From an uncultured virus (IMG/VR IMGVR_UViG_3300027283_000132) (lineage: Duplodnaviria > Heunggongvirae > Uroviricota > Caudoviricetes): a DNA stretch of 20,000 bases. The position numbers were made by a program, and so were the translations under genes. Below the pieces are notes generated by a model, which was given only the letters and a program-made list of their open reading frames with translations, did no database searches and was not told the DNA's origin. The DNA lies in the IMG/VR virus record IMGVR_UViG_3300027283_000132, positions 61,497 through 81,496 of that record; one strand, 5' to 3'. Below, piece after piece: positions 4,627-19,451 of this stretch; within the stretch, counting starts at the first letter, position 1; each line of letters starts with the position of its first letter.

Positions 4627-4656
4627 TTCAACGCCCCCTTCAATGCCCCTTTGAAA
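4627..4656. repeat. 12-bp phased TTCAA/TTGAA motif
   Basis: TTCAA at 4627 and 4639 and TTGAA at 4651, separated by GC-rich spacers. Related arrays occur at 18354-18382 and 19274-19302. Confidence 0.6.
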
Positions 4657-9747: not shown

Positions 9748-12700
9748 TCCTGTTCTTTGCGTTCCTCGTAGGCTTTATCGTAGCACCCGGCGGAGCTATG
9801 GCCGAGCCGATTTCCACTGCGATTGCCGTTGCGCTGGCGGCATCAAGCGCCGGGGCTGGCACGTTTGCGGCGATTGCTGCGGGGTTCGGTGCACTGGGGG
9901 CGTTTGCGACGCGGATCATCGTGGGCGTGGGCCTCTCGCTGCTCAATCAAGCCTTTGCCAAGAAGCCCAAGGTCAATGGTCAGGGCATCCAGACCGAACA
10001 GACCACGACCGGCGACGTGACGCCGCAGAAATTCATCGTGGGCACAATGGCGGCGGAGGGCCACGCGGTTGCGCCCGCCTATAGCCGCTTCAAGAACAAC
10101 GGCATCCTGACCTACATTCTCGAGGTCTCGAACATTCCTGTGCAAGGTCTGACTGGGCGGATCGTCATAAACGGCAAATATTCCGACATCGAGGCCCCCG
10201 ACAATAGCGCGGGGCCGTTCAATGAGGTGCCCGAAAATTCTGGCCGTCGCATCCTGACCGAGTTCCGGCAGGACGACACAGACCCGACCGCGTGGATGTG
10301 GTTCTACGACGGGACGCAGACCGAGGCCGATCCAACGCTGGTGACATACTATGGCGCGCATCCTGACCGTCCTTGGACCACGGATCACGTCCTGCGCGGC
10401 ACAGCCTATGCGGTGCTGGAATTCGCGCTGGACCCCGAGATTTATCAGGGCCTGCCCTCTGTCCGGTTCGAGGTGCAGGGCATCAAGCTCTACGATCCGC
10501 GCAAGGATACCACCGTGGGCGGCTCTGGCGCGCATCGGTGGGACAATCCCGCAACTTGGGAGTTCTCAGAAAATCCGCAGGTGATCAATTACAACATCTA
10601 TCGTGGCATCACCCTGCCCACGGGCGACATCTGGGGCGGGCAGGTGTCTGCCGAGGATTTGCCACTCGATAACTGGTTTGCGGGCATGAACGAGTGCGAC
10701 GTCGATATCGGCGGGCGCAAGCAATACGTGGCGGGCTTCGAGATCAACGTCGAGGAGATGGCCCCGGTCGATGTGATCGAGGAAATGAACCGCGCCAGCT
10801 TTGCCCAGACGGCTGAGTTCGGTGGCGTGTTCCGGGTGCGCGTGGGTGCGCCCTCGGCCCCGGTGCTGGCTCTCACCGATGCGGATTTCGTAATCACGGA
10901 ATCCTCGGAGCTCACGCCGTTCCCGGCGTTCGAGAACGTGACCAACGGCATCACCGGGACTTACGTCGAGCCGAATGATATCTGGGAGGGCCGCGAGGCC
11001 GATCTGATCCTGAACGAGGATTGGGTGGCCGAGGATGGCGGGCAGCGGGTGGCAAGCGTTGGACTGCCTGCGGTGAGCGTCAAGGCGCAGGCGCAGCACC
11101 TGCTGAATTCTCTGCTGCTGGATGCGCGCCGGTTTGTGACGTTCCAAGTGACCTTGCCGCCGAGTTTCGCGCTGGTCGAGCCGCTGGATTCGATCAGCTT
11201 CACGTCCGAGATTTACGGCTACACGAACAAGGTGTTCGAGGTGATCGAGGTCGAGGACCGCACCGACACGTTGCTGCAAGTCGTGGTGATGCGCGAGCGC
11301 GAGGCCACGGATACAGATTGGGGGCCGGAGCTCGACGTGCCGGCACCTCTGCCCACCAATGGTCAGACACCGCCTGCGCCGCTTGTGGTGCCGCTGTCAG
11401 TGGCTGCGTTTGACCTGTCGGACGCAGGCGGCACTGCGCGCCGCCCGGCAATCCTGTTGACCTGGACGATTGAAAGCCTGCCCGCGATCCGCAACCTGAA
11501 ATATCAGGTGCGCGTGAAGGCCACGCAGGAGATCGTCGCAGAGGGCATCAAGCCGGTCGACGGGGGCCGCGTGCTGGTGCGGGGCGACATCATCGCCGCG
11601 ACGGAATACGAGGTCCGCGCCCGTTATGTGGCCGACAGCCCGACCGCGTGGACGCCGTGGCTGAGTGTGACCACGCCGGATTTGCGGTTGACGCAAGCGG
11701 ACCTTGCCGACGCCCTGCGCGACCAGATCGACACGGCCTTTGACCGGCATGATGCTGTGCTTGGCGATGCGAACATGCCGCGATCTGTCTCTGACCTGTT
11801 CAACCGCGTGGGTGAGGGTGCTGATGAGGTTGCCGAGGGACTGCTGCGCGGTTTCCTCGACGGGCAGGCGGTGCGCGAAACAACGGCATTTGGGCGGCGC
11901 GAGATTTCCACGCAGGTCGTGGACGGTATCAGCGCCGAGGCGAGCGAGCGGCTTCTTCTAGCCTCTAAGGTCGATCAGAACGCCGCCGTGATCACACAGG
12001 TGGCTGCAACCCGTGTGACAGCCGACGGCGCGGTGGCGGCGGTCAATCAGCAGATCGTGGCCAGCTACGGCAGTGTCACGGCGCTGGCAGAGGCTACGGC
12101 CTTTGCTGAGGCAACCATAGACGGCATATCGAGCGGCTTTGTCTGGTCACTTGGCGGCGATGATGTGTTGTCGCTGGTGCGTGTGGATGATGGTGAGACA
12201 GAGCCTGTCACGACCGCCCGGATCAAGGGCGATTACATCAAACTGGATGGCACTGTCGAAGTTTCCGGCGACTTTGTTCTCGATGGCGATCTGATCCTTG
12301 GCGGGTCAATTGTTACGGACAAGATCGAAGCAAATGCGACAGGGGCAATTAGCGCCACAACGCTTGGTTCAGATTTTCTGATCACCAGTACTTCTGCCTT
12401 TCAAGATGTTCTGACCTTGACGGCTGCGCACAGCAATCTGCCGAGTGAGCGACACATGATCCTGAACGTCAGGTTTCAGGCGGGGTCACTCAGCCCAGAT
12501 GATCTGGGCGCTGACGTGGAGTATCGCATACTTCGGAACGGGGTGCAGATGGAAGACACGCTTGTCTACCGTCAACGCGTCGAATTGGGCAAAAGGCAAC
12601 TGCTTGACAGCATGGTTTTCAAGAACCGCACGACGCCGGGGGCATCCGCGACCACCTACAAATTGCAGGCACGTTACTGGTTTCACCCCGGTGGTCTTAA

Positions 12701-14981: not shown

Positions 14982-16406
14982 ATGGCACTGATCACGACCA
15001 ATCTCAAAGTCCAGTTCGAGACAACCAATACGGTTGTGTCGCCTACTCTGTGGGTGGATGAGATTGCCGGGATCGAGCTGACGCAACTCGGGGCCATGTC
15101 CGAGCCTACGCTGCGCACGGCCGAAGAGGGGACGCCGACTGGCGCAGCTTATTTCAGTTTTGATAGCAGCAATGACGGGCTGGGGACTGTCGACCTGGCG
15201 GGCGAGGACATACCGGACGGGGTAGAGCCTCGCACAATGTATGTGGTTGTTCGTTTCCCGCCGGGGACTAGCGCCGGTAATTTCAACGGGGTCATGTATG
15301 GCGCCCCGACCACACGGCAAGCCTTTGGGACCGTGCTCAGCAACACCGAAAAGGTGCTGACCGATTTCTGGGCCGCCAGTTTCGCATCCGCTGCCAACTT
15401 TAACGACGACACCTGGCACATCATTTCGATCACTTTCAACGGGTCGGGTGTCGTCGGATACGTTGACAACGCTGGCGTCATTTCCGGCACACCCGCCACG
15501 CTCAACACCATTCTGTCCAAGCTATATATTAACTACAAACTGAGCGACAACGCAGGCGCGCTGATGGATTGCGCTGCGGTGCTGATTTATGCCGGCGCGC
15601 ACACCGCGCCGCAGCTCACTGAGATGTTCAACTACCTCAACGGTAAGTACATCACGCCTGGCGCTTCTGGCATCTCAGAGCGCACTGCGTCCAGTGGCGG
15701 CACCTTTGGTCTGACCGCCTCTCCTGCCTCTGTGCTCTTGCGGGCCGCGTCGAGCGAAGGCGCGTCGGGTGCCTCTGCGGCCTCTGTTGCCGTGCAGGGT
15801 CGCGCTGCGATCTCCGGCGGGGCTTCCGGTGCCGACGCAGCACCGACGCGCGTCTCCGGGCGCGCTGGAGCATCAGGCGGCCTCTCTGGCGCGTCCGCAA
15901 GCCCCGTCCAGATCGTCACGCGCAGCGCGTCGGGCGGCGGCGCATCCGGGGCCATCGCCACCCCTCAGACAACCGGACAGGTCGCGCGATCCGCGACCTG
16001 CGGTGGCACCTCTGGCGCGAGTGCCGCGCCGGTGTCTGTAGGATCGCGCGCTGCAGCCTCCGGGGGCGCCTCTGGCACCGGGGCCATGGCCGCGCATGTC
16101 AGCGTCAGAGAGGCCGCGTCAGGCGGGCTGTCCGGGGCAGAGGCCACACCCACCGCAATCACTCAGCGCGCAGCCAACGCGGGCGGCGTGTCCGGCGTGA
16201 TAGCCGCACCCGCGCGGATCGCGGCCCGGTCTGCGGTCTCCGGAGGCACGTCTGGGTCAGAGGCCACACCCGCTGACACGAGCCGGGTGGTGGACTTCCG
16301 GGCCACGGCCCTCTGGGATGAGCCTCAATTTACGGCCCTTTGGGATGAACCGAGCTTTACCGCCCTTTGGGATGAGCCACGTTTTGTGGCCACATGGAGA
16401 GACTGA
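14982..16406 (+). CDS. Putative fibre/adhesin: N-terminal LamG/concanavalin-like domain, 20-aa repeat stalk, 9-aa repeat C-terminus
   Basis: GAGG RBS. TMYVVVRF, NDDTWHIISITFNGS....YVDN and AAVLIY..A.......YL..KY match a LamG-like jelly roll, followed by Ala/Gly/Ser repeats. Confidence 0.75.
   Translation: MALITTNLKVQFETTNTVVSPTLWVDEIAGIELTQLGAMSEPTLRTAEEGTPTGAAYFSFDSSNDGLGTVDLAGEDIPDGVEPRTMYVVVRFPPGTSAGNFNGVMYGAPTTRQAFGTVLSNTEKVLTDFWAASFASAANFNDDTWHIISITFNGSGVVGYVDNAGVISGTPATLNTILSKLYINYKLSDNAGALMDCAAVLIYAGAHTAPQLTEMFNYLNGKYITPGASGISERTASSGGTFGLTASPASVLLRAASSEGASGASAASVAVQGRAAISGGASGADAAPTRVSGRAGASGGLSGASASPVQIVTRSASGGGASGAIATPQTTGQVARSATCGGTSGASAAPVSVGSRAAASGGASGTGAMAAHVSVREAASGGLSGAEATPTAITQRAANAGGVSGVIAAPARIAARSAVSGGTSGSEATPADTSRVVDFRATALWDEPQFTALWDEPSFTALWDEPRFVATWRD
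15675..16280 (+). repeat. About ten degenerate 20-aa (60-nt) coding repeats, consensus xxRxAxSGGxSGAxAxPxxV
   Basis: Read directly from the translation: SERTASSGGTFGLTASPASV / LLRAASSEGASGASAASVAV / QGRAAISGGASGADAAPTRV / ... / AARSAVSGGTSGSEATPADT. Confidence 0.85.
16305..16397 (+). repeat. Three-and-a-half 27-nt tandem coding repeats (TALWDEPxF)
   Basis: acggccctctgggatgagcctcaattt / acggccctttgggatgaaccgagcttt / accgccctttgggatgagccacgtttt / gtggccacatgg. Confidence 0.9.
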
Positions 16407-16699: not shown

Positions 16700-16886
16700 A
16701 GACATTCCCCAATGAGTGGGGATTTCCCGGTGGCCCTGAGCGGCCGCCCTACAGGAGGCCCCGAGCGCGCTGGAGGGCACGCCCGGGGACGCGGGGCCAG
16801 TCACCAAACTTCAACCCCGCCGACCAGTCAGACCTCATGGCCGCTCCCTGCCCCAAGGGGGCGGCGGGACTATGAGGCGATTCGAT
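16700..16886 (+). promoter_or_regulatory. Hairpin-rich regulatory region upstream of com
   Basis: Stems TCCCCA 16706-16711/TGGGGA 16717-16722, GCGGGG 16791-16796/CCCCGC 16815-16820 and GCCGCTCCCT 16840-16849/AGGGGGCGGC 16856-16865. Position is equivalent to the Mu Pmom region. Confidence 0.4.
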
Positions 16887-17090
16887 TTGGAAGGTCTAGA
16901 ACTGCGTTGCTGCGCCTGCGGCCGTTTGCTATTTAAATATGAGAGAGGCGCGCAAATATCCGGCGTCTCGATCAAATGCCCGCGCTGCCGGGCGATGAAT
17001 ATCCTGAGGCCAAGAGCCCTTCCCCCAACGCGCGATGCGCAGAGAGAAGGAGCCAGACTTGGCCAGATCGACCACACTCCCGAAACCTGA
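16872..17090 (+). CDS. com: Mu Com-family zinc-finger translational regulator (alternative start TTG 16887)
   Basis: ELRCCACGRLL...IKCPRCRAMN four-Cys finger, located after the tail fibre genes as in Mu. Confidence 0.88.
   Translation: MRRFDLEGLELRCCACGRLLFKYERGAQISGVSIKCPRCRAMNILRPRALPPTRDAQREGARLGQIDHTPET
17008..17064 (+). promoter_or_regulatory. Predicted translation-inhibition stem-loop masking the RBS and TTG start of the gene after com
   Basis: GGCCAAG 17008-17014 pairs with CTTGGCC 17058-17064 (contains TTG), CCTTC 17018-17022 pairs with GAAGG 17046-17050 (RBS), and GCGC-GAT-GCGC 17030-17040 caps the structure. Confidence 0.65.
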
Positions 17091-17241
17091 CCTGCCGCCC
17101 GGTGCGCCGGGCCTGCCCAAAGGCGTCCGTTACAGGCGGCAATATGGCGTCATTGTCCTCCTCGAGGACGAGGCCGCCCAAGTCGACGCCTTCGGCCGCC
17201 TGCGCCGTCAGGGCTTCAAATGCCGCGTGGTGGTGACATGA
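17059..17241 (+). CDS. Small 60-aa protein coupled to the ABC-GNAT gene
   Basis: GAAGGAG RBS 6 nt before TTG 17059. Compact C-terminal domain QYGVIVLLEDEAAQVDAFGRLRRQGFKCRVVVT, with an ATGA overlap to the next gene. Confidence 0.7.
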   Translation: MARSTTLPKPDLPPGAPGLPKGVRYRRQYGVIVLLEDEAAQVDAFGRLRRQGFKCRVVVT

Positions 17242-18347
17242 AGCTCGCCATTCACCACGCCAGCCCCATCCCGGACACCTACCGCGCGGCCCGGGTCTCC
17301 AGCCTCTTCAACGTCGAGGGCGACGCGGATTTCCGCCTCGAGGTCGAGGCTGATTTGGCGGCACGCCCGTGGCAGATCGGCCTCATCGTCGGCCCCTCGG
17401 GCAGCGGGAAATCCTCGCTCGCCCGCGAAGCCTTTGGCGCTGAGCTTGATCCGCGCCCGTGGCCCGAGGGCGCGCTGATCGACGCGATTGATCCCGAGGG
17501 GGAATTTGATGCTGTCGCGGCGGCGCTCTCGGCCGTGGGCCTTGGCACGGTGCCGAGCTGGCTGCGCCCCTTCCGCCACCTCTCGACCGGCGAGCAGTTC
17601 CGGGCCGAGCTCGCGCGCATTCTCGCCGAGCGGCCGAGCTTTGCCATTCTCGACGAGTTCACCTCGACCATCGACCGGCGCGTGGCCCAGATCGGGGCGG
17701 CCGCCTTTGCCAAGGCATGGCGACGCGGCCCCGGCCAGTTCGTCGCCGTCACCTGTCACGAGGACGTGGTGTCCTGGTTGCAGCCCGATTGGGTGATCGA
17801 CACCCGCCGGGCTGAGTTCCGCTGGAGGCGTCTTCGACGGGCACCGCGCATTGCCATGGACATTCACCAGACGGACGGCTCCTTCTGGCCCGCCTTTGAG
17901 CCGCATCACTACCTGAAGCTGCCCCGCATGATCGCGGCCAATTACTACGTGGGCTTTGTCGACGGCGCACCCGTGGCGCATCTCGCCGTCTCGACCCGAC
18001 CGGGGCTGGTCGAGGGCCGCGCCTGTCGCCTCGTCGTCATGCCCGAGTGGCAGGGCGCGGGGCTGGGCTTGCGGTTTCTCAACGAGGTCTGCGCCCTCTG
18101 GCGGCGCGGCGTGAACCGCTACGAGAGGCCCATGCCGATGCTCTTTCACACTTCGCACCCCGGCCTTGCCGCCGCCCTGCGCCGCGATCCCCTCTGGGCG
18201 CAGGTCTCGGCCATCCTCTACGCCGAATCGAAGGAGCGCAGCATGAAGACCCTCGCCGCCGCCCGGGCGCGCAAGGGGCTCAAGCCCGCCGGGTCAGGTT
18301 ATGGCGGGCATTTTCGCGCCGTGCAGGGGTTTCGCTATGTGGAGTGA
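17238..18347 (+). CDS. ABC-type ATPase fused to a GNAT (Mom-like) acyltransferase; putative DNA-modification enzyme
   Basis: Walker A GPSGSGKS, signature LSTGE, Walker B ILDEF, H-loop VTCHED and GNAT motif A RLVVMPEWQGAGLG. No transmembrane partner gene. Occupies the mom position. Confidence 0.85.
   Translation: MKLAIHHASPIPDTYRAARVSSLFNVEGDADFRLEVEADLAARPWQIGLIVGPSGSGKSSLAREAFGAELDPRPWPEGALIDAIDPEGEFDAVAAALSAVGLGTVPSWLRPFRHLSTGEQFRAELARILAERPSFAILDEFTSTIDRRVAQIGAAAFAKAWRRGPGQFVAVTCHEDVVSWLQPDWVIDTRRAEFRWRRLRRAPRIAMDIHQTDGSFWPAFEPHHYLKLPRMIAANYYVGFVDGAPVAHLAVSTRPGLVEGRACRLVVMPEWQGAGLGLRFLNEVCALWRRGVNRYERPMPMLFHTSHPGLAAALRRDPLWAQVSAILYAESKERSMKTLAAARARKGLKPAGSGYGGHFRAVQGFRYVE
18132..18347 (+). 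repeat. Direct repeat copy 1 (3' 216 nt of the ABC-GNAT gene)
   Basis: Aligns without gaps to 19050-19265, with 19 mismatches by manual count. Confidence 0.95.
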
Positions 18348-18565
18348 AAGGGGTTTAGGTGGGTGTTGAAGGGGCATTTAAAAAGGCCGCTGGGCTTTCG
18401 AAACTGCCTCCCGCGTTCCCTACCTTAAGATACCGCACCGGCGTTTCCTGAAGCGGTCAATCGCTCAAAATCGCTGCAACTCCAGCGAGATTCTGCCGGC
18501 CACTGAATGGTCATAGCACAACCAATGGTATAAGCGGCCGTTTCCATCATGCACAGGACCCACTC

Positions 18566-18991
18566 TTGCTCTATCAACTCGCCTATGTAAGCTCCGCTCG
18601 ATCACCGCTCGGTCAGGAAACTTTGTCTGACATCCTTGAGGTCTCTCAGCGCAATAACGCGAGGGATCAGATCACCGGCGTTCTCATGTATCATGACCAA
18701 CTTTTTTTCCAGGTCCTGGAGGGGGAGAAGGCTGTAGTCGAAGACTGCTATTATAGGAGGATTGTCCACGATCATCGTCACAGTAACTTGTCACTCACTT
18801 GGAGCGATGGCGTTGAAAGACGAACATTTTCGGACTGGTTGATGGGGTATGCCGGGCCTGACGAAATTGGCCAGTTTACCAGAGGCAAGTTCCACTCCTT
18901 GGAGGAATTGAAGACTGACAATGGCTTGAACGAGCCTGTCAAACATGTGGCTCTAGAGCTTGCCCTTTTAATGTTCCGCGACTCTCGATGA
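18566..18991 (+). CDS. Stand-alone BLUF blue-light (FAD) sensor protein
   Basis: TTG start with AGGA upstream. LAYVS (Tyr), ILEVSQRNN, ITGVL, FFQVLEG (Gln), DHRH and RTFSDWLM (Trp/Met) give the full set of BLUF signature residues. Confidence 0.93.
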   Translation: MLYQLAYVSSARSPLGQETLSDILEVSQRNNARDQITGVLMYHDQLFFQVLEGEKAVVEDCYYRRIVHDHRHSNLSLTWSDGVERRTFSDWLMGYAGPDEIGQFTRGKFHSLEELKTDNGLNEPVKHVALELALLMFRDSR

Positions 18992-19040: not shown

Positions 19041-19265
19041 GTGAAACCGATGCCGATGCTCTTTCACACCTCGCACCCCGGCCTCGCCGCAGCGCTCCGC
19101 CGCGATCCCCTCTGGGCACAGGTCTCGGCCATCCTCTACGCCGAGTCCAAGGAGCGTAGCATGAAGACCCTCGCCGCCGCCCGGGCGCGCAAAGGCCTCA
19201 AACCCGCCGGGACCGGCTACGGCGGCCATTTCCGCGCCGTGCAGGGGTTTCGGTATGTGGAGTGA
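19041..19265 (+). pseudogene. Orphan 3' fragment of a second ABC-GNAT allele (direct repeat copy 2)
   Basis: 71 codons from ATG 19050 are identical in protein to the ABC-GNAT C-terminus except one S->T. Lacks the ATPase domain and GNAT motif A, and has no clear RBS. Confidence 0.85.
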
Positions 19266-19451
19266 GGGGGGTGTTTAGGGGGGTGTTAAATGCCCGGTTA
19301 GACGGACTGTCGAACGTTGGCCGGTTTAAAACCGCTGCGGACTTTTGCGGTACACCGACACAAGGTACTCTAGTACCGATGAACGATGCATTCAAATGCT
19401 AGGCTTCAGTCGCACATCGCGAAAGCCGTCTCGCAATAAGGTAGGTTCTTT

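Follow-up and report, generated by a model that had tools for sequence, protein, structure and literature searches.

The com–mom operon of phage Mu is among the closest known counterparts of the locus reported here, and its two genes are the last of the Mu genome, with mom ending 115 nucleotides (nt) from the Mu end. A second counterpart is the coupling of a GNAT with an ABC ATPase, for which the prediction of DNA acylation reportedly goes back to Iyer, Zhang, Burroughs and Aravind (Nucleic Acids Research, 2013). Two further systems provide context: TmcA/NAT10, in which an ATPase fused to a GNAT makes N4-acetylcytidine in RNA, and the pairing of the ParB-like protein DndB with the ABC ATPase DndD in DNA modification. 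Our subject is a 20,000-nt stretch (referred to throughout as the window) of an uncultured virus (IMG/VR record IMGVR_UViG_3300027283_000132, positions 61,497–81,496) in which com is followed by a small gene encoding a 60-amino acid (aa) adaptor and by a gene encoding an ABC ATPase fused to a GNAT domain. We think it probable, while falling well short of certainty, that these genes form a Com-gated late operon in which the adaptor and the ABC-ATPase::GNAT enzyme put an acyl mark on phage DNA and thereby protect it from restriction.

An excerpt of PMC7824862 places Mom in the GNAT superfamily and attributes to the Aravind group (2013) the prediction that a GNAT coupled with an ABC ATPase is a DNA-base acylation system. 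The original prediction made for the window, which took the system to be novel, had therefore been anticipated in print, and no bench study of the ABC-ATPase::GNAT module was found in the full-text literature searched. The additions made here are the identity of the adaptor as the tail of a partner protein, the opposition of a hairpin carrying the Com motif to a stem that hides a start site, and a survey of the cargo found behind com.

The 81.5-kb record consists of two tandem Mu-like prophages which are 79–91% identical to each other and which each have a Mu-type DDE_2 transposase (161.8 and 157.2 bits). The window covers the late region of a Mu-like siphovirus prophage, including the major head, tape-measure and tail-fibre genes found by PHROG scan. 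The com, small and enzyme genes are the last three genes of both prophage copies, and since the similarity between the copies stops at window position 18370, 23 nt past the enzyme stop codon, they can be considered the terminal genes of the prophage. The approximate right end itself (18348–18385, no strand assigned) is marked by tandem GGGGYRTTNAA-like motifs and was placed by comparing end sequences and from the limit of the two-copy similarity. The original prediction is upheld here in two respects, as a com-like finger, a 60-aa gene and an ABC ATPase–GNAT fusion are all present on the + strand in the overlapping order it described (open reading frames (ORFs), Pfam and PHROG), and they lie where com–mom lies in Mu, last before the right end.

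The com gene (16872–17090, + strand) encodes a 72-aa Zn-ribbon translational regulator (CxxC...CxxC) which exceeds the cut-off for the Pfam family Zn_ribbon_Com (PF10122; 33.2 bits, cut-off 22.9), matches the PHROG 'translational regulator' and 'gpCom' families (phrog_6417 at 8e-11) and shares 31% identity with Mu Com (BLASTP E 1e-8). Judged by sequence, it is a true homologue of the Mu protein. Residues C7, C10 and C30 are invariant in nine aligned Com proteins, and the fourth zinc position (CPRC) is a cysteine in eight of these and an arginine in locus L030. The overlap between com and the small gene is 32 nt and that between the small gene and the enzyme gene is 4 nt (ATGA); com overlaps the adaptor start by 17–77 nt in 13 of the 14 com-bearing loci listed, with a 9-nt gap in L026. 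Between the two prophage copies com has 2 synonymous and 5 non-synonymous differences, and its synonymous divergence (dS; 16872–17087) is 0.04 compared to 0.32 in the enzyme gene, or approximately 8-fold lower. This fits an extra constraint on the RNA, and a recent exchange between the copies would have the same effect.

Three RNA elements were recognised at the 3′ end of com, all on the + strand. Hairpin 1 (AGGCCAAGAGCCC, 17007–17019) is a candidate Com operator in a conserved helix and carries CCAAGAG at 17010–17016, which matches the Com RNA motif CC(N)2–3GAG defined experimentally (excerpt of PMC6483171). Hairpin 2 (GCGC-GAU-GCGC, 17029–17040) is a conserved helix with compensatory changes, and by motif count its window copy is without a GAG motif. 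The third is an inhibitory stem-loop (17008–17064) that pairs both the Shine–Dalgarno sequence (17047–17052) and the TTG start codon (17059–17061) of the small gene. The 68-nt stretch 17003–17070 has a minimum free energy of −25.3 kcal/mol (z −3.39, with 0 of 200 shuffles as stable), and only this hairpin stands out, as the wider 121-nt region gave a z of −0.10 and nine other regions gave −2.24 (L026) and from −1.60 to +1.63 (the remainder). The start-hiding fold is the same in four close relatives, among which there is no covariation. As hairpin 1 shares bases with the 5′ arm of the start-hiding stem, the two structures are mutually exclusive and could act as a simple switch. Com may well bind the hairpin at 17007–17019, and the finding of a CC(N)2–3GAG motif in a short hairpin adjoining a stem that takes in the regulated gene's start codon, the arrangement of a Com operator, lends weight to the earlier proposal that the operon is under Com control.

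The two small hairpins are conserved in an alignment of ten com loci, from which we built a covariance model (R1) that was searched against 80 com loci plus Mu. This gave 70 matches at E ≤ 1, of which 68 were at the com 3′ end and on the coding strand; Mu itself gave no match at this threshold. The hairpin pair occurs behind com whatever the cargo (methylases, Mom or ABC-GNAT), and in loci L090–L169 it is found approximately 95–150 nt past the start of the com match. In an RNA alignment fitted to the R1 structure, a procedure which favours pairing, 93.2% of cells were paired compared to 34–54% with a slid partner and 7 of 8 pairs showed compensatory changes, with the corresponding values for helix 2 being 97.1% and 4 of 4 pairs changed on both sides. 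The Com motif is present in 58 of 63 distinct R1 matches (hairpin 1 in 40, hairpin 2 in 47, and both in 29). A search of Rfam (E ≤ 1) found nothing in 16700–18500, nor is there an Rfam family for the two-hairpin element.

The small gene (17059–17241, + strand) encodes a 60-aa protein which we recognise, from phrog_28816, phmmer matches and gene fusions, as a free-standing version of the beta-alpha-beta tail of a ParB-like partner. The ORF listing also includes a 68-aa form with an ATG start at 17035, and the TTG at 17059 is the likelier start because it is preceded 6 nt upstream by AAGGAG and because a 95%-identical relative uses the same codon. The adaptor matches phrog_28816 at 2.2e-9 and has no match in Pfam, and hence no ParB_N domain. 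In single-sequence phmmer searches it matches the last ~40 residues of 170–317-aa proteins encoded directly upstream of the enzyme in other phages (e.g. residues 151–193 of a 193-aa upstream protein, E 2.6e-10). These searches are taken as the basis of the tail homology because an iterated adaptor profile grew from 41 to 87 matches. ParB_N is found in 35 of 52 long upstream partners at E ≤ 0.01, and the piece they have in common with the adaptor is a beta-alpha-beta unit with the consensus Y..QYgVIV.C.DE..Q.....L...G...kVV.

The association between the small gene and the enzyme gene noted in the original prediction was borne out by a survey of neighbourhoods. Of 75 viral loci with sufficient sequence in front of the enzyme gene, 67 have an adaptor homologue immediately before that gene (15 short and 52 long, with com at eight of the short and none of the long), and such a homologue is adjacent to the enzyme gene in 65 of 77 bacterial-genome loci (45 short, 13 long and 7 intermediate; the bacterial-genome counts are for the best 80 loci kept, which span many phyla). 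In these best 80, com was found at 38 loci, 34 of them with a short adaptor. N-terminally extended members of the enzyme family (568–623 aa) carry the tail ~20 residues before the ABC domain in eight out of eight cases, and by the gene-fusion argument this suggests that the tail and enzyme work together. The coupled upstream partner ending in a beta-alpha-beta tail is that of the PHROG 11143 module, and the window is best read as a minimal form of it from which the ParB-like domain has gone and in which the tail is kept as its own gene. The suggestion that the small protein is a DNA-targeting subunit is less likely in the light of the phmmer matches, which portray it as the remainder when the ParB-like domain is missing. 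The two prophage copies differ in this gene by 10 synonymous and 5 non-synonymous changes (ratio of non-synonymous to synonymous substitution rates, dN/dS, 0.17). We infer contact between the adaptor and the enzyme; a complex prediction using the enzyme and adaptor alignments (score 0.01, mark 0.32) speaks neither for nor against it.

The enzyme gene starts at 17220 or, more likely, at 17238 and ends at 18347, and encodes 369 aa when read from the ATGA overlap. The ABC ATPase domain (17238–17825, + strand) includes Walker A (GPSGSGKS, 17391–17414), the LSTGEQ signature (17580–17597), Walker B (FAILDE, 17640–17657) and the switch histidine (in CH, 17757–17759), and the GNAT acyltransferase domain plus stop codon (17826–18347, + strand) includes motif A (RLVVMPEWQGAGLG, 18027–18068). 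The protein matches phrog_11143 over its full length (2.5e-131, residues 8–374 with profile positions 2–349 of 357), and in 58 aligned homologues the invariant residues are S54, G55, G57, K58, S116, G118, D139, E140 and H174 in the ABC domain and R264, V266, P269, Q272 and G273 in the GNAT domain, where the acyl-CoA motif RxVVxPxxQGxGxG is conserved and reads QGAGLG in the window enzyme. When the prophage copies are compared, 73 differences in this gene are synonymous and 11 are non-synonymous (dN/dS 0.04), and this value and that of the small gene indicate that both genes are real and under purifying selection.

An AlphaFold model made from the 58 homologues (predicted local distance difference test (pLDDT) 91.2, predicted template modelling score 0.85) has an ABC nucleotide-binding domain in its first ~195 residues, in keeping with the Pfam ABC_tran score (38.7 bits, cut-off 25), with Foldseek matches to IrtAB, MalK, SufC and FtsE, and with an enzyme profile search of the PDB in which only ABC proteins were present among the 60 matches listed. 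As ABC domains filled the Foldseek results for the full model, the GNAT domain was folded and searched alone (C-terminal 173 residues, pLDDT 86.6). It was then found to match 1y9k (VIA Z 15.4, root-mean-square deviation 2.6, 131 aligned) and RimI (Z 14.7), and all 50 VIA matches listed are GNAT-type chains, as are all of the Foldseek matches listed. A GNAT profile search of the PDB also returned mostly GNATs with weak E-values (best 0.0029) along with a few unrelated chains (e.g. ClpS and glucose-6-phosphate dehydrogenase). The enzyme's own Pfam GNAT scores are below the cut-offs (18.3 vs 20.7 and 19.2 vs 27), and of the 26 relatives scanned, 11 pass the Acetyltransf_1 cut-off. The C-terminal domain belongs with the canonical GNATs and not with the Mom family, and the enzyme as a whole has the composition of the PHROG 11143 module, with an N-terminal ABC ATPase, a C-terminal GNAT fold with the Q/RxxGxG/A motif, and full-length membership.

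It should be noted that public records refer to relatives of this enzyme as 'ABC transporter ATP-binding protein' or 'siderophore transporter', and were this correct, the gene might encode an ordinary transporter ATPase or be cargo in decay, of no use in the phage life cycle. We give this explanation almost no credence, as no permease or substrate-binding protein gene adjoins the enzyme gene (the neighbours are com, the adaptor gene, tail genes and the prophage end), the GNAT fusion and adaptor are conserved across phyla, and the low dN/dS is accompanied by catalytic motifs which are all intact.

Relatives of the enzyme are widely distributed, with 502 sequence clusters (at 50% identity) at E ≤ 1e-30 and 4121 representatives at E ≤ 0.001, although some of the latter are perhaps generic ABC proteins. 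At least 594 of 600 matching stretches of species-representative genomes encode a relative, as do 411 of 582 IMG/VR stretches and 72 GenBank phage records, with hosts that include Burkholderia, Pseudomonas, Porphyromonas, Streptococcus, Lactococcus and Gordonia. At 24 of 44 sampled bacterial-genome loci, at least one of the two largest flanking ORFs is a virion, packaging or transposition gene (the PHROG scan of flanks covered 84 of 142 chosen ORFs, from 44 of 79 loci), and annotated DNA methylases are found beside the enzyme gene in Streptococcus and Oenococcus phages. Downstream of the enzyme gene, a formyltransferase gene is found at 27 of 69 viral loci and at 56 of 75 genome loci, and it overlaps the end of the enzyme gene in phiE255, a Pseudomonas phage and Porphyromonas phages. 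We also note a Rhizobiaceae contig (L197, 2096–3289) in which the cassette neighbours a QueC-like gene of the 7-deazaguanine pathway, a further connection with DNA modification, and a 715-aa homologue (P0253) whose ATPase part is interrupted by an intein (Hint plus LAGLIDADG homing endonuclease).

We surveyed the cargo of 80 IMG/VR com loci by taking the longest same-strand ORF starting 30–700 nt past the com match, and this provided 79 cargo ORFs (one locus had none) which were then classed by Pfam, PHROG and BLAST. These comprised 13 D12 adenine methylases, 18 C5 cytosine methylases, 15 N6_N4 methylases, one Methyltransf_23 protein, seven members of a divergent family resembling the PHROG 'DNA methyltransferase' phrog_1008 (four tested, and three by BLAST likeness), three Mom proteins (PF25680 at 141–258 bits), 14 ABC-GNAT enzymes, seven small ORFs with no family and one head protease. 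DNA methyltransferases or Mom therefore make up 57 of the 79 Com-linked cargoes (54 and 3, respectively), or 57 of the 65 that are not ABC-GNAT enzymes. The seven divergent proteins (L103, L110, L111, L114, L125, L127 and L158) are ~320–350 aa long, 39–63% identical and without a Pfam match at E ≤ 0.01, and the likeness to PHROG 1008 of the four that were scanned is weak; together with the seven small ORFs of no family they are candidates for new DNA-modifying cargo.

The com cargoes and the ParB-like partner lend indirect support to the DNA-modification reading, and when the methylase and packaging genes that neighbour relatives of the enzyme are also considered, DNA appears the most likely target. 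A number of observations weigh against the proposed system as a whole. The ABC domain resembles the nucleotide-binding domains of transporters and not those of the DNA-handling Rad50/SMC/MutS type, and a reading of the sequence reveals no glutamine in the interval from Walker A to the signature, so that the ATPase cycle may be atypical. No DNA-binding domain was recognised by Pfam in the three window proteins, and the ParB-like domain of the relatives is missing. No formyltransferase gene was found across the whole 81.5-kb record, and it is also missing from the nearest relatives with downstream DNA, so the product may differ from that of most relatives or be an incomplete form of it. Among the 14 ABC-GNAT cargoes, approximately 10 represent close relatives of the window prophage, two of these being on one record, and the pairing bias of the fitted RNA alignment must also be counted here. 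The enzyme does not match Mom (PF25680) at E ≤ 0.1 in the Pfam scan, and hhalign gives a probability of 0.06% for the GNAT profile and Mu Mom. The proposal that the enzyme replaces mom consequently holds for the slot and for Com and not for sequence kinship. A search for a Mom homologue elsewhere in the 81.5-kb record gave an empty answer to which we attach limited weight.

The nearest solved GNAT folds also add to the points on this side, as they are protein N-terminal and small-molecule acetyltransferases (RimI, Naa10/50 and SpeG), with the best structural matches including protein N-alpha-acetyltransferases and polyamine and antibiotic acetyltransferases, and judged on the modelled fold alone a protein or small-molecule target would be just as likely as DNA. 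The enzyme might then acylate a host defence, transcription, virion or DNA-bound protein, or a small molecule, with Com limiting its toxicity to late infection. There is a precedent for phage GNATs modifying host proteins in phiKMV Rac (excerpt of PMC7824862), and some depositors of Porphyromonas phages have labelled the adaptor gene an 'acr candidate'. We nevertheless regard a protein or small-molecule target as unlikely, though still worth consideration, because the GNAT fold does not predict the substrate, the usual partner has a ParB-like domain, the neighbours elsewhere are DNA methylases and packaging genes, and the Com-linked cargoes other than ABC-GNAT are DNA-modifying enzymes with the exception of the seven ORFs of no family and the head protease.

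A further explanation is that the enzyme acetylates RNA or tRNA in an ATP-dependent manner and retunes late translation, and for this TmcA/NAT10 offers the precedent of an ATPase–GNAT fusion. The GNAT profile does match the motif-A region of NAT10 chains 7mq8 and 9j3c weakly (E 0.07–0.08), but no better than dozens of other GNATs, and there are no Pfam matches to a helicase-type ATPase, a tRNA-binding domain or GNAT_acetyltr_2, the ATPase being of the ABC type. As the ParB-like partner and the com slot point to DNA, we find RNA acetylation very improbable, and for the original interpretation as a whole, modification of phage DNA, our assessment is that it is plausible and partly supported.

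Taken as acylation of phage DNA, the system could work as follows. The operon would be transcribed late with the tail genes, and the ribosome site and TTG start of the adaptor gene would be locked in the stem at 17008–17064 until Com binds the CC(N)2–3GAG hairpin at 17007–17019, which takes the 5′ arm of the stem and would free the start site. Ribosomes ending the 60-aa gene would restart at the ATGA overlap to make the enzyme, which would bind acyl-CoA through the canonical GNAT motif, and the ABC domain, presumably dimeric, might drive or gate the reaction by binding and hydrolysing ATP. The enzyme with its adaptor would then acylate a base in phage DNA that has replicated but is yet to be packaged, and the mark would protect this DNA from host restriction, as Mom and the methylases of the same slot do. 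In this scheme dimerisation, the acyl donor, the DNA target and the protective effect are what we infer for the enzyme.

A more ambitious reading, which we advance tentatively and hold with somewhat less than even confidence, is that the adaptor and ABC::GNAT enzyme represent a new class of ATP-gated nucleic-acid acyltransferase making a new acyl mark on phage DNA after replication. As part of this joint reading, the enzyme would have its universal coupling element in the beta-alpha-beta tail of ~40 residues, the formyltransferase of relatives would elaborate the acyl mark further, the two-protein form under Com would offer the simplest version found in nature for working out the chemistry, and phages would use the pair of Com hairpins as a portable switch of translation, set before any toxic DNA-modifying cargo. 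The enzyme family is large, and if DNA is marked, this would be a kind of DNA hypermodification still to be explored and probably a device against restriction, which would matter for the host range of phages, for how modified DNA is read in sequencing data and for DNA-marking tools. With two proteins plus Com, no ParB domain and no formyltransferase, the window has the easiest form to reconstitute. The com survey points to Com and its hairpins as a general gate for cargo that modifies DNA, and surveying the genes behind com is thus a practical route to new modification enzymes.

The host of this Mu-like siphovirus prophage is probably Roseovarius, as Roseovarius genomes were the closest among the matches listed for species-representative genomes (98% and 97%); the roseophage paper PMC5488378 does not mention the com, adaptor or enzyme genes. 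A scan for sigma-70 promoters found 0 sites, and the two terminator-like sites found are no excess over shuffles. A search for the left prophage end as the inverse of the right-end motif did not fix the ends, and the inverse (TTCAAYRCCCC, in tandem) is found just upstream of several operon starts in both prophages (window position 4627 and record (G000) positions 10118, 19383, 49114 and 60310), where it might serve as the site of a regulator or form a small hairpin. Beyond the right end, a 226-nt remnant at 19041–19272, located 918 nt downstream, repeats the 3′-terminal part of the enzyme gene together with the prophage-end motif at 90% identity and holds a 74-aa ORF. A fourth end-like motif lies outside the window between the two prophages (record positions 41117–41150), and the Roseovarius mucosus and R. 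lutimaris genomes have only 3′ parts of the enzyme gene (residues 114–369 and 120–369). It would seem that the remains of right ends of prophages of this kind accumulate in one orientation. A BLUF blue-light sensor gene (18566–18991, Pfam 8.3e-29) of low G+C content (~50% vs ~68%) lies between the remnant and the prophage end, and after the tail-fibre genes there is a 474-aa protein (14982–16406) with no family match, in which 20-residue repeats rich in Ala, Gly and Ser are accompanied by three 9-residue repeats (TALWDEPxF) at the C-terminal end.

In comparison with known systems, the window encodes the same two-domain enzyme as the predicted GNAT plus ABC ATPase system and PHROG 11143. The order of com, small gene and enzyme gene is the same in Burkholderia phage phiE255, where gp29 is 61% identical to the window enzyme, and it differs in that phiE255 and many relatives carry a formyltransferase after the enzyme gene, which the window copy is without. 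Most relatives of the PHROG 11143 type have a full ParB-like partner, mostly a ParB_N protein encoded directly upstream and translationally coupled, whereas the window retains only the ~40-residue tail in a separate 60-aa protein with no ParB-like domain. The theme of a ParB-like partner is also seen in the ParB-dependent phage T-dioxygenases (excerpt of PMC13229309).

The likeness to TmcA/NAT10 is that of an ATPase plus a GNAT acting on a nucleic-acid base, and the two may work alike, although these proteins have a helicase-like ATPase and a tRNA-binding domain whereas the window enzyme is of the ABC type with no tRNA-binding domain, and so is not a member of that family. In contrast to Mu Mom, to which it has no sequence relation, the window enzyme has an ATPase domain and what is likely to be an adaptor partner, and the window Com would act on the adaptor gene itself and reach the enzyme by way of coupling alone, unlike in com–mom. 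The operons themselves are nonetheless alike in having homologous Com proteins, in the overlap of com with the start of the regulated gene, in their position as the last genes before the right end, and in having a Com-type hairpin adjoining a stem that contains the start codon.

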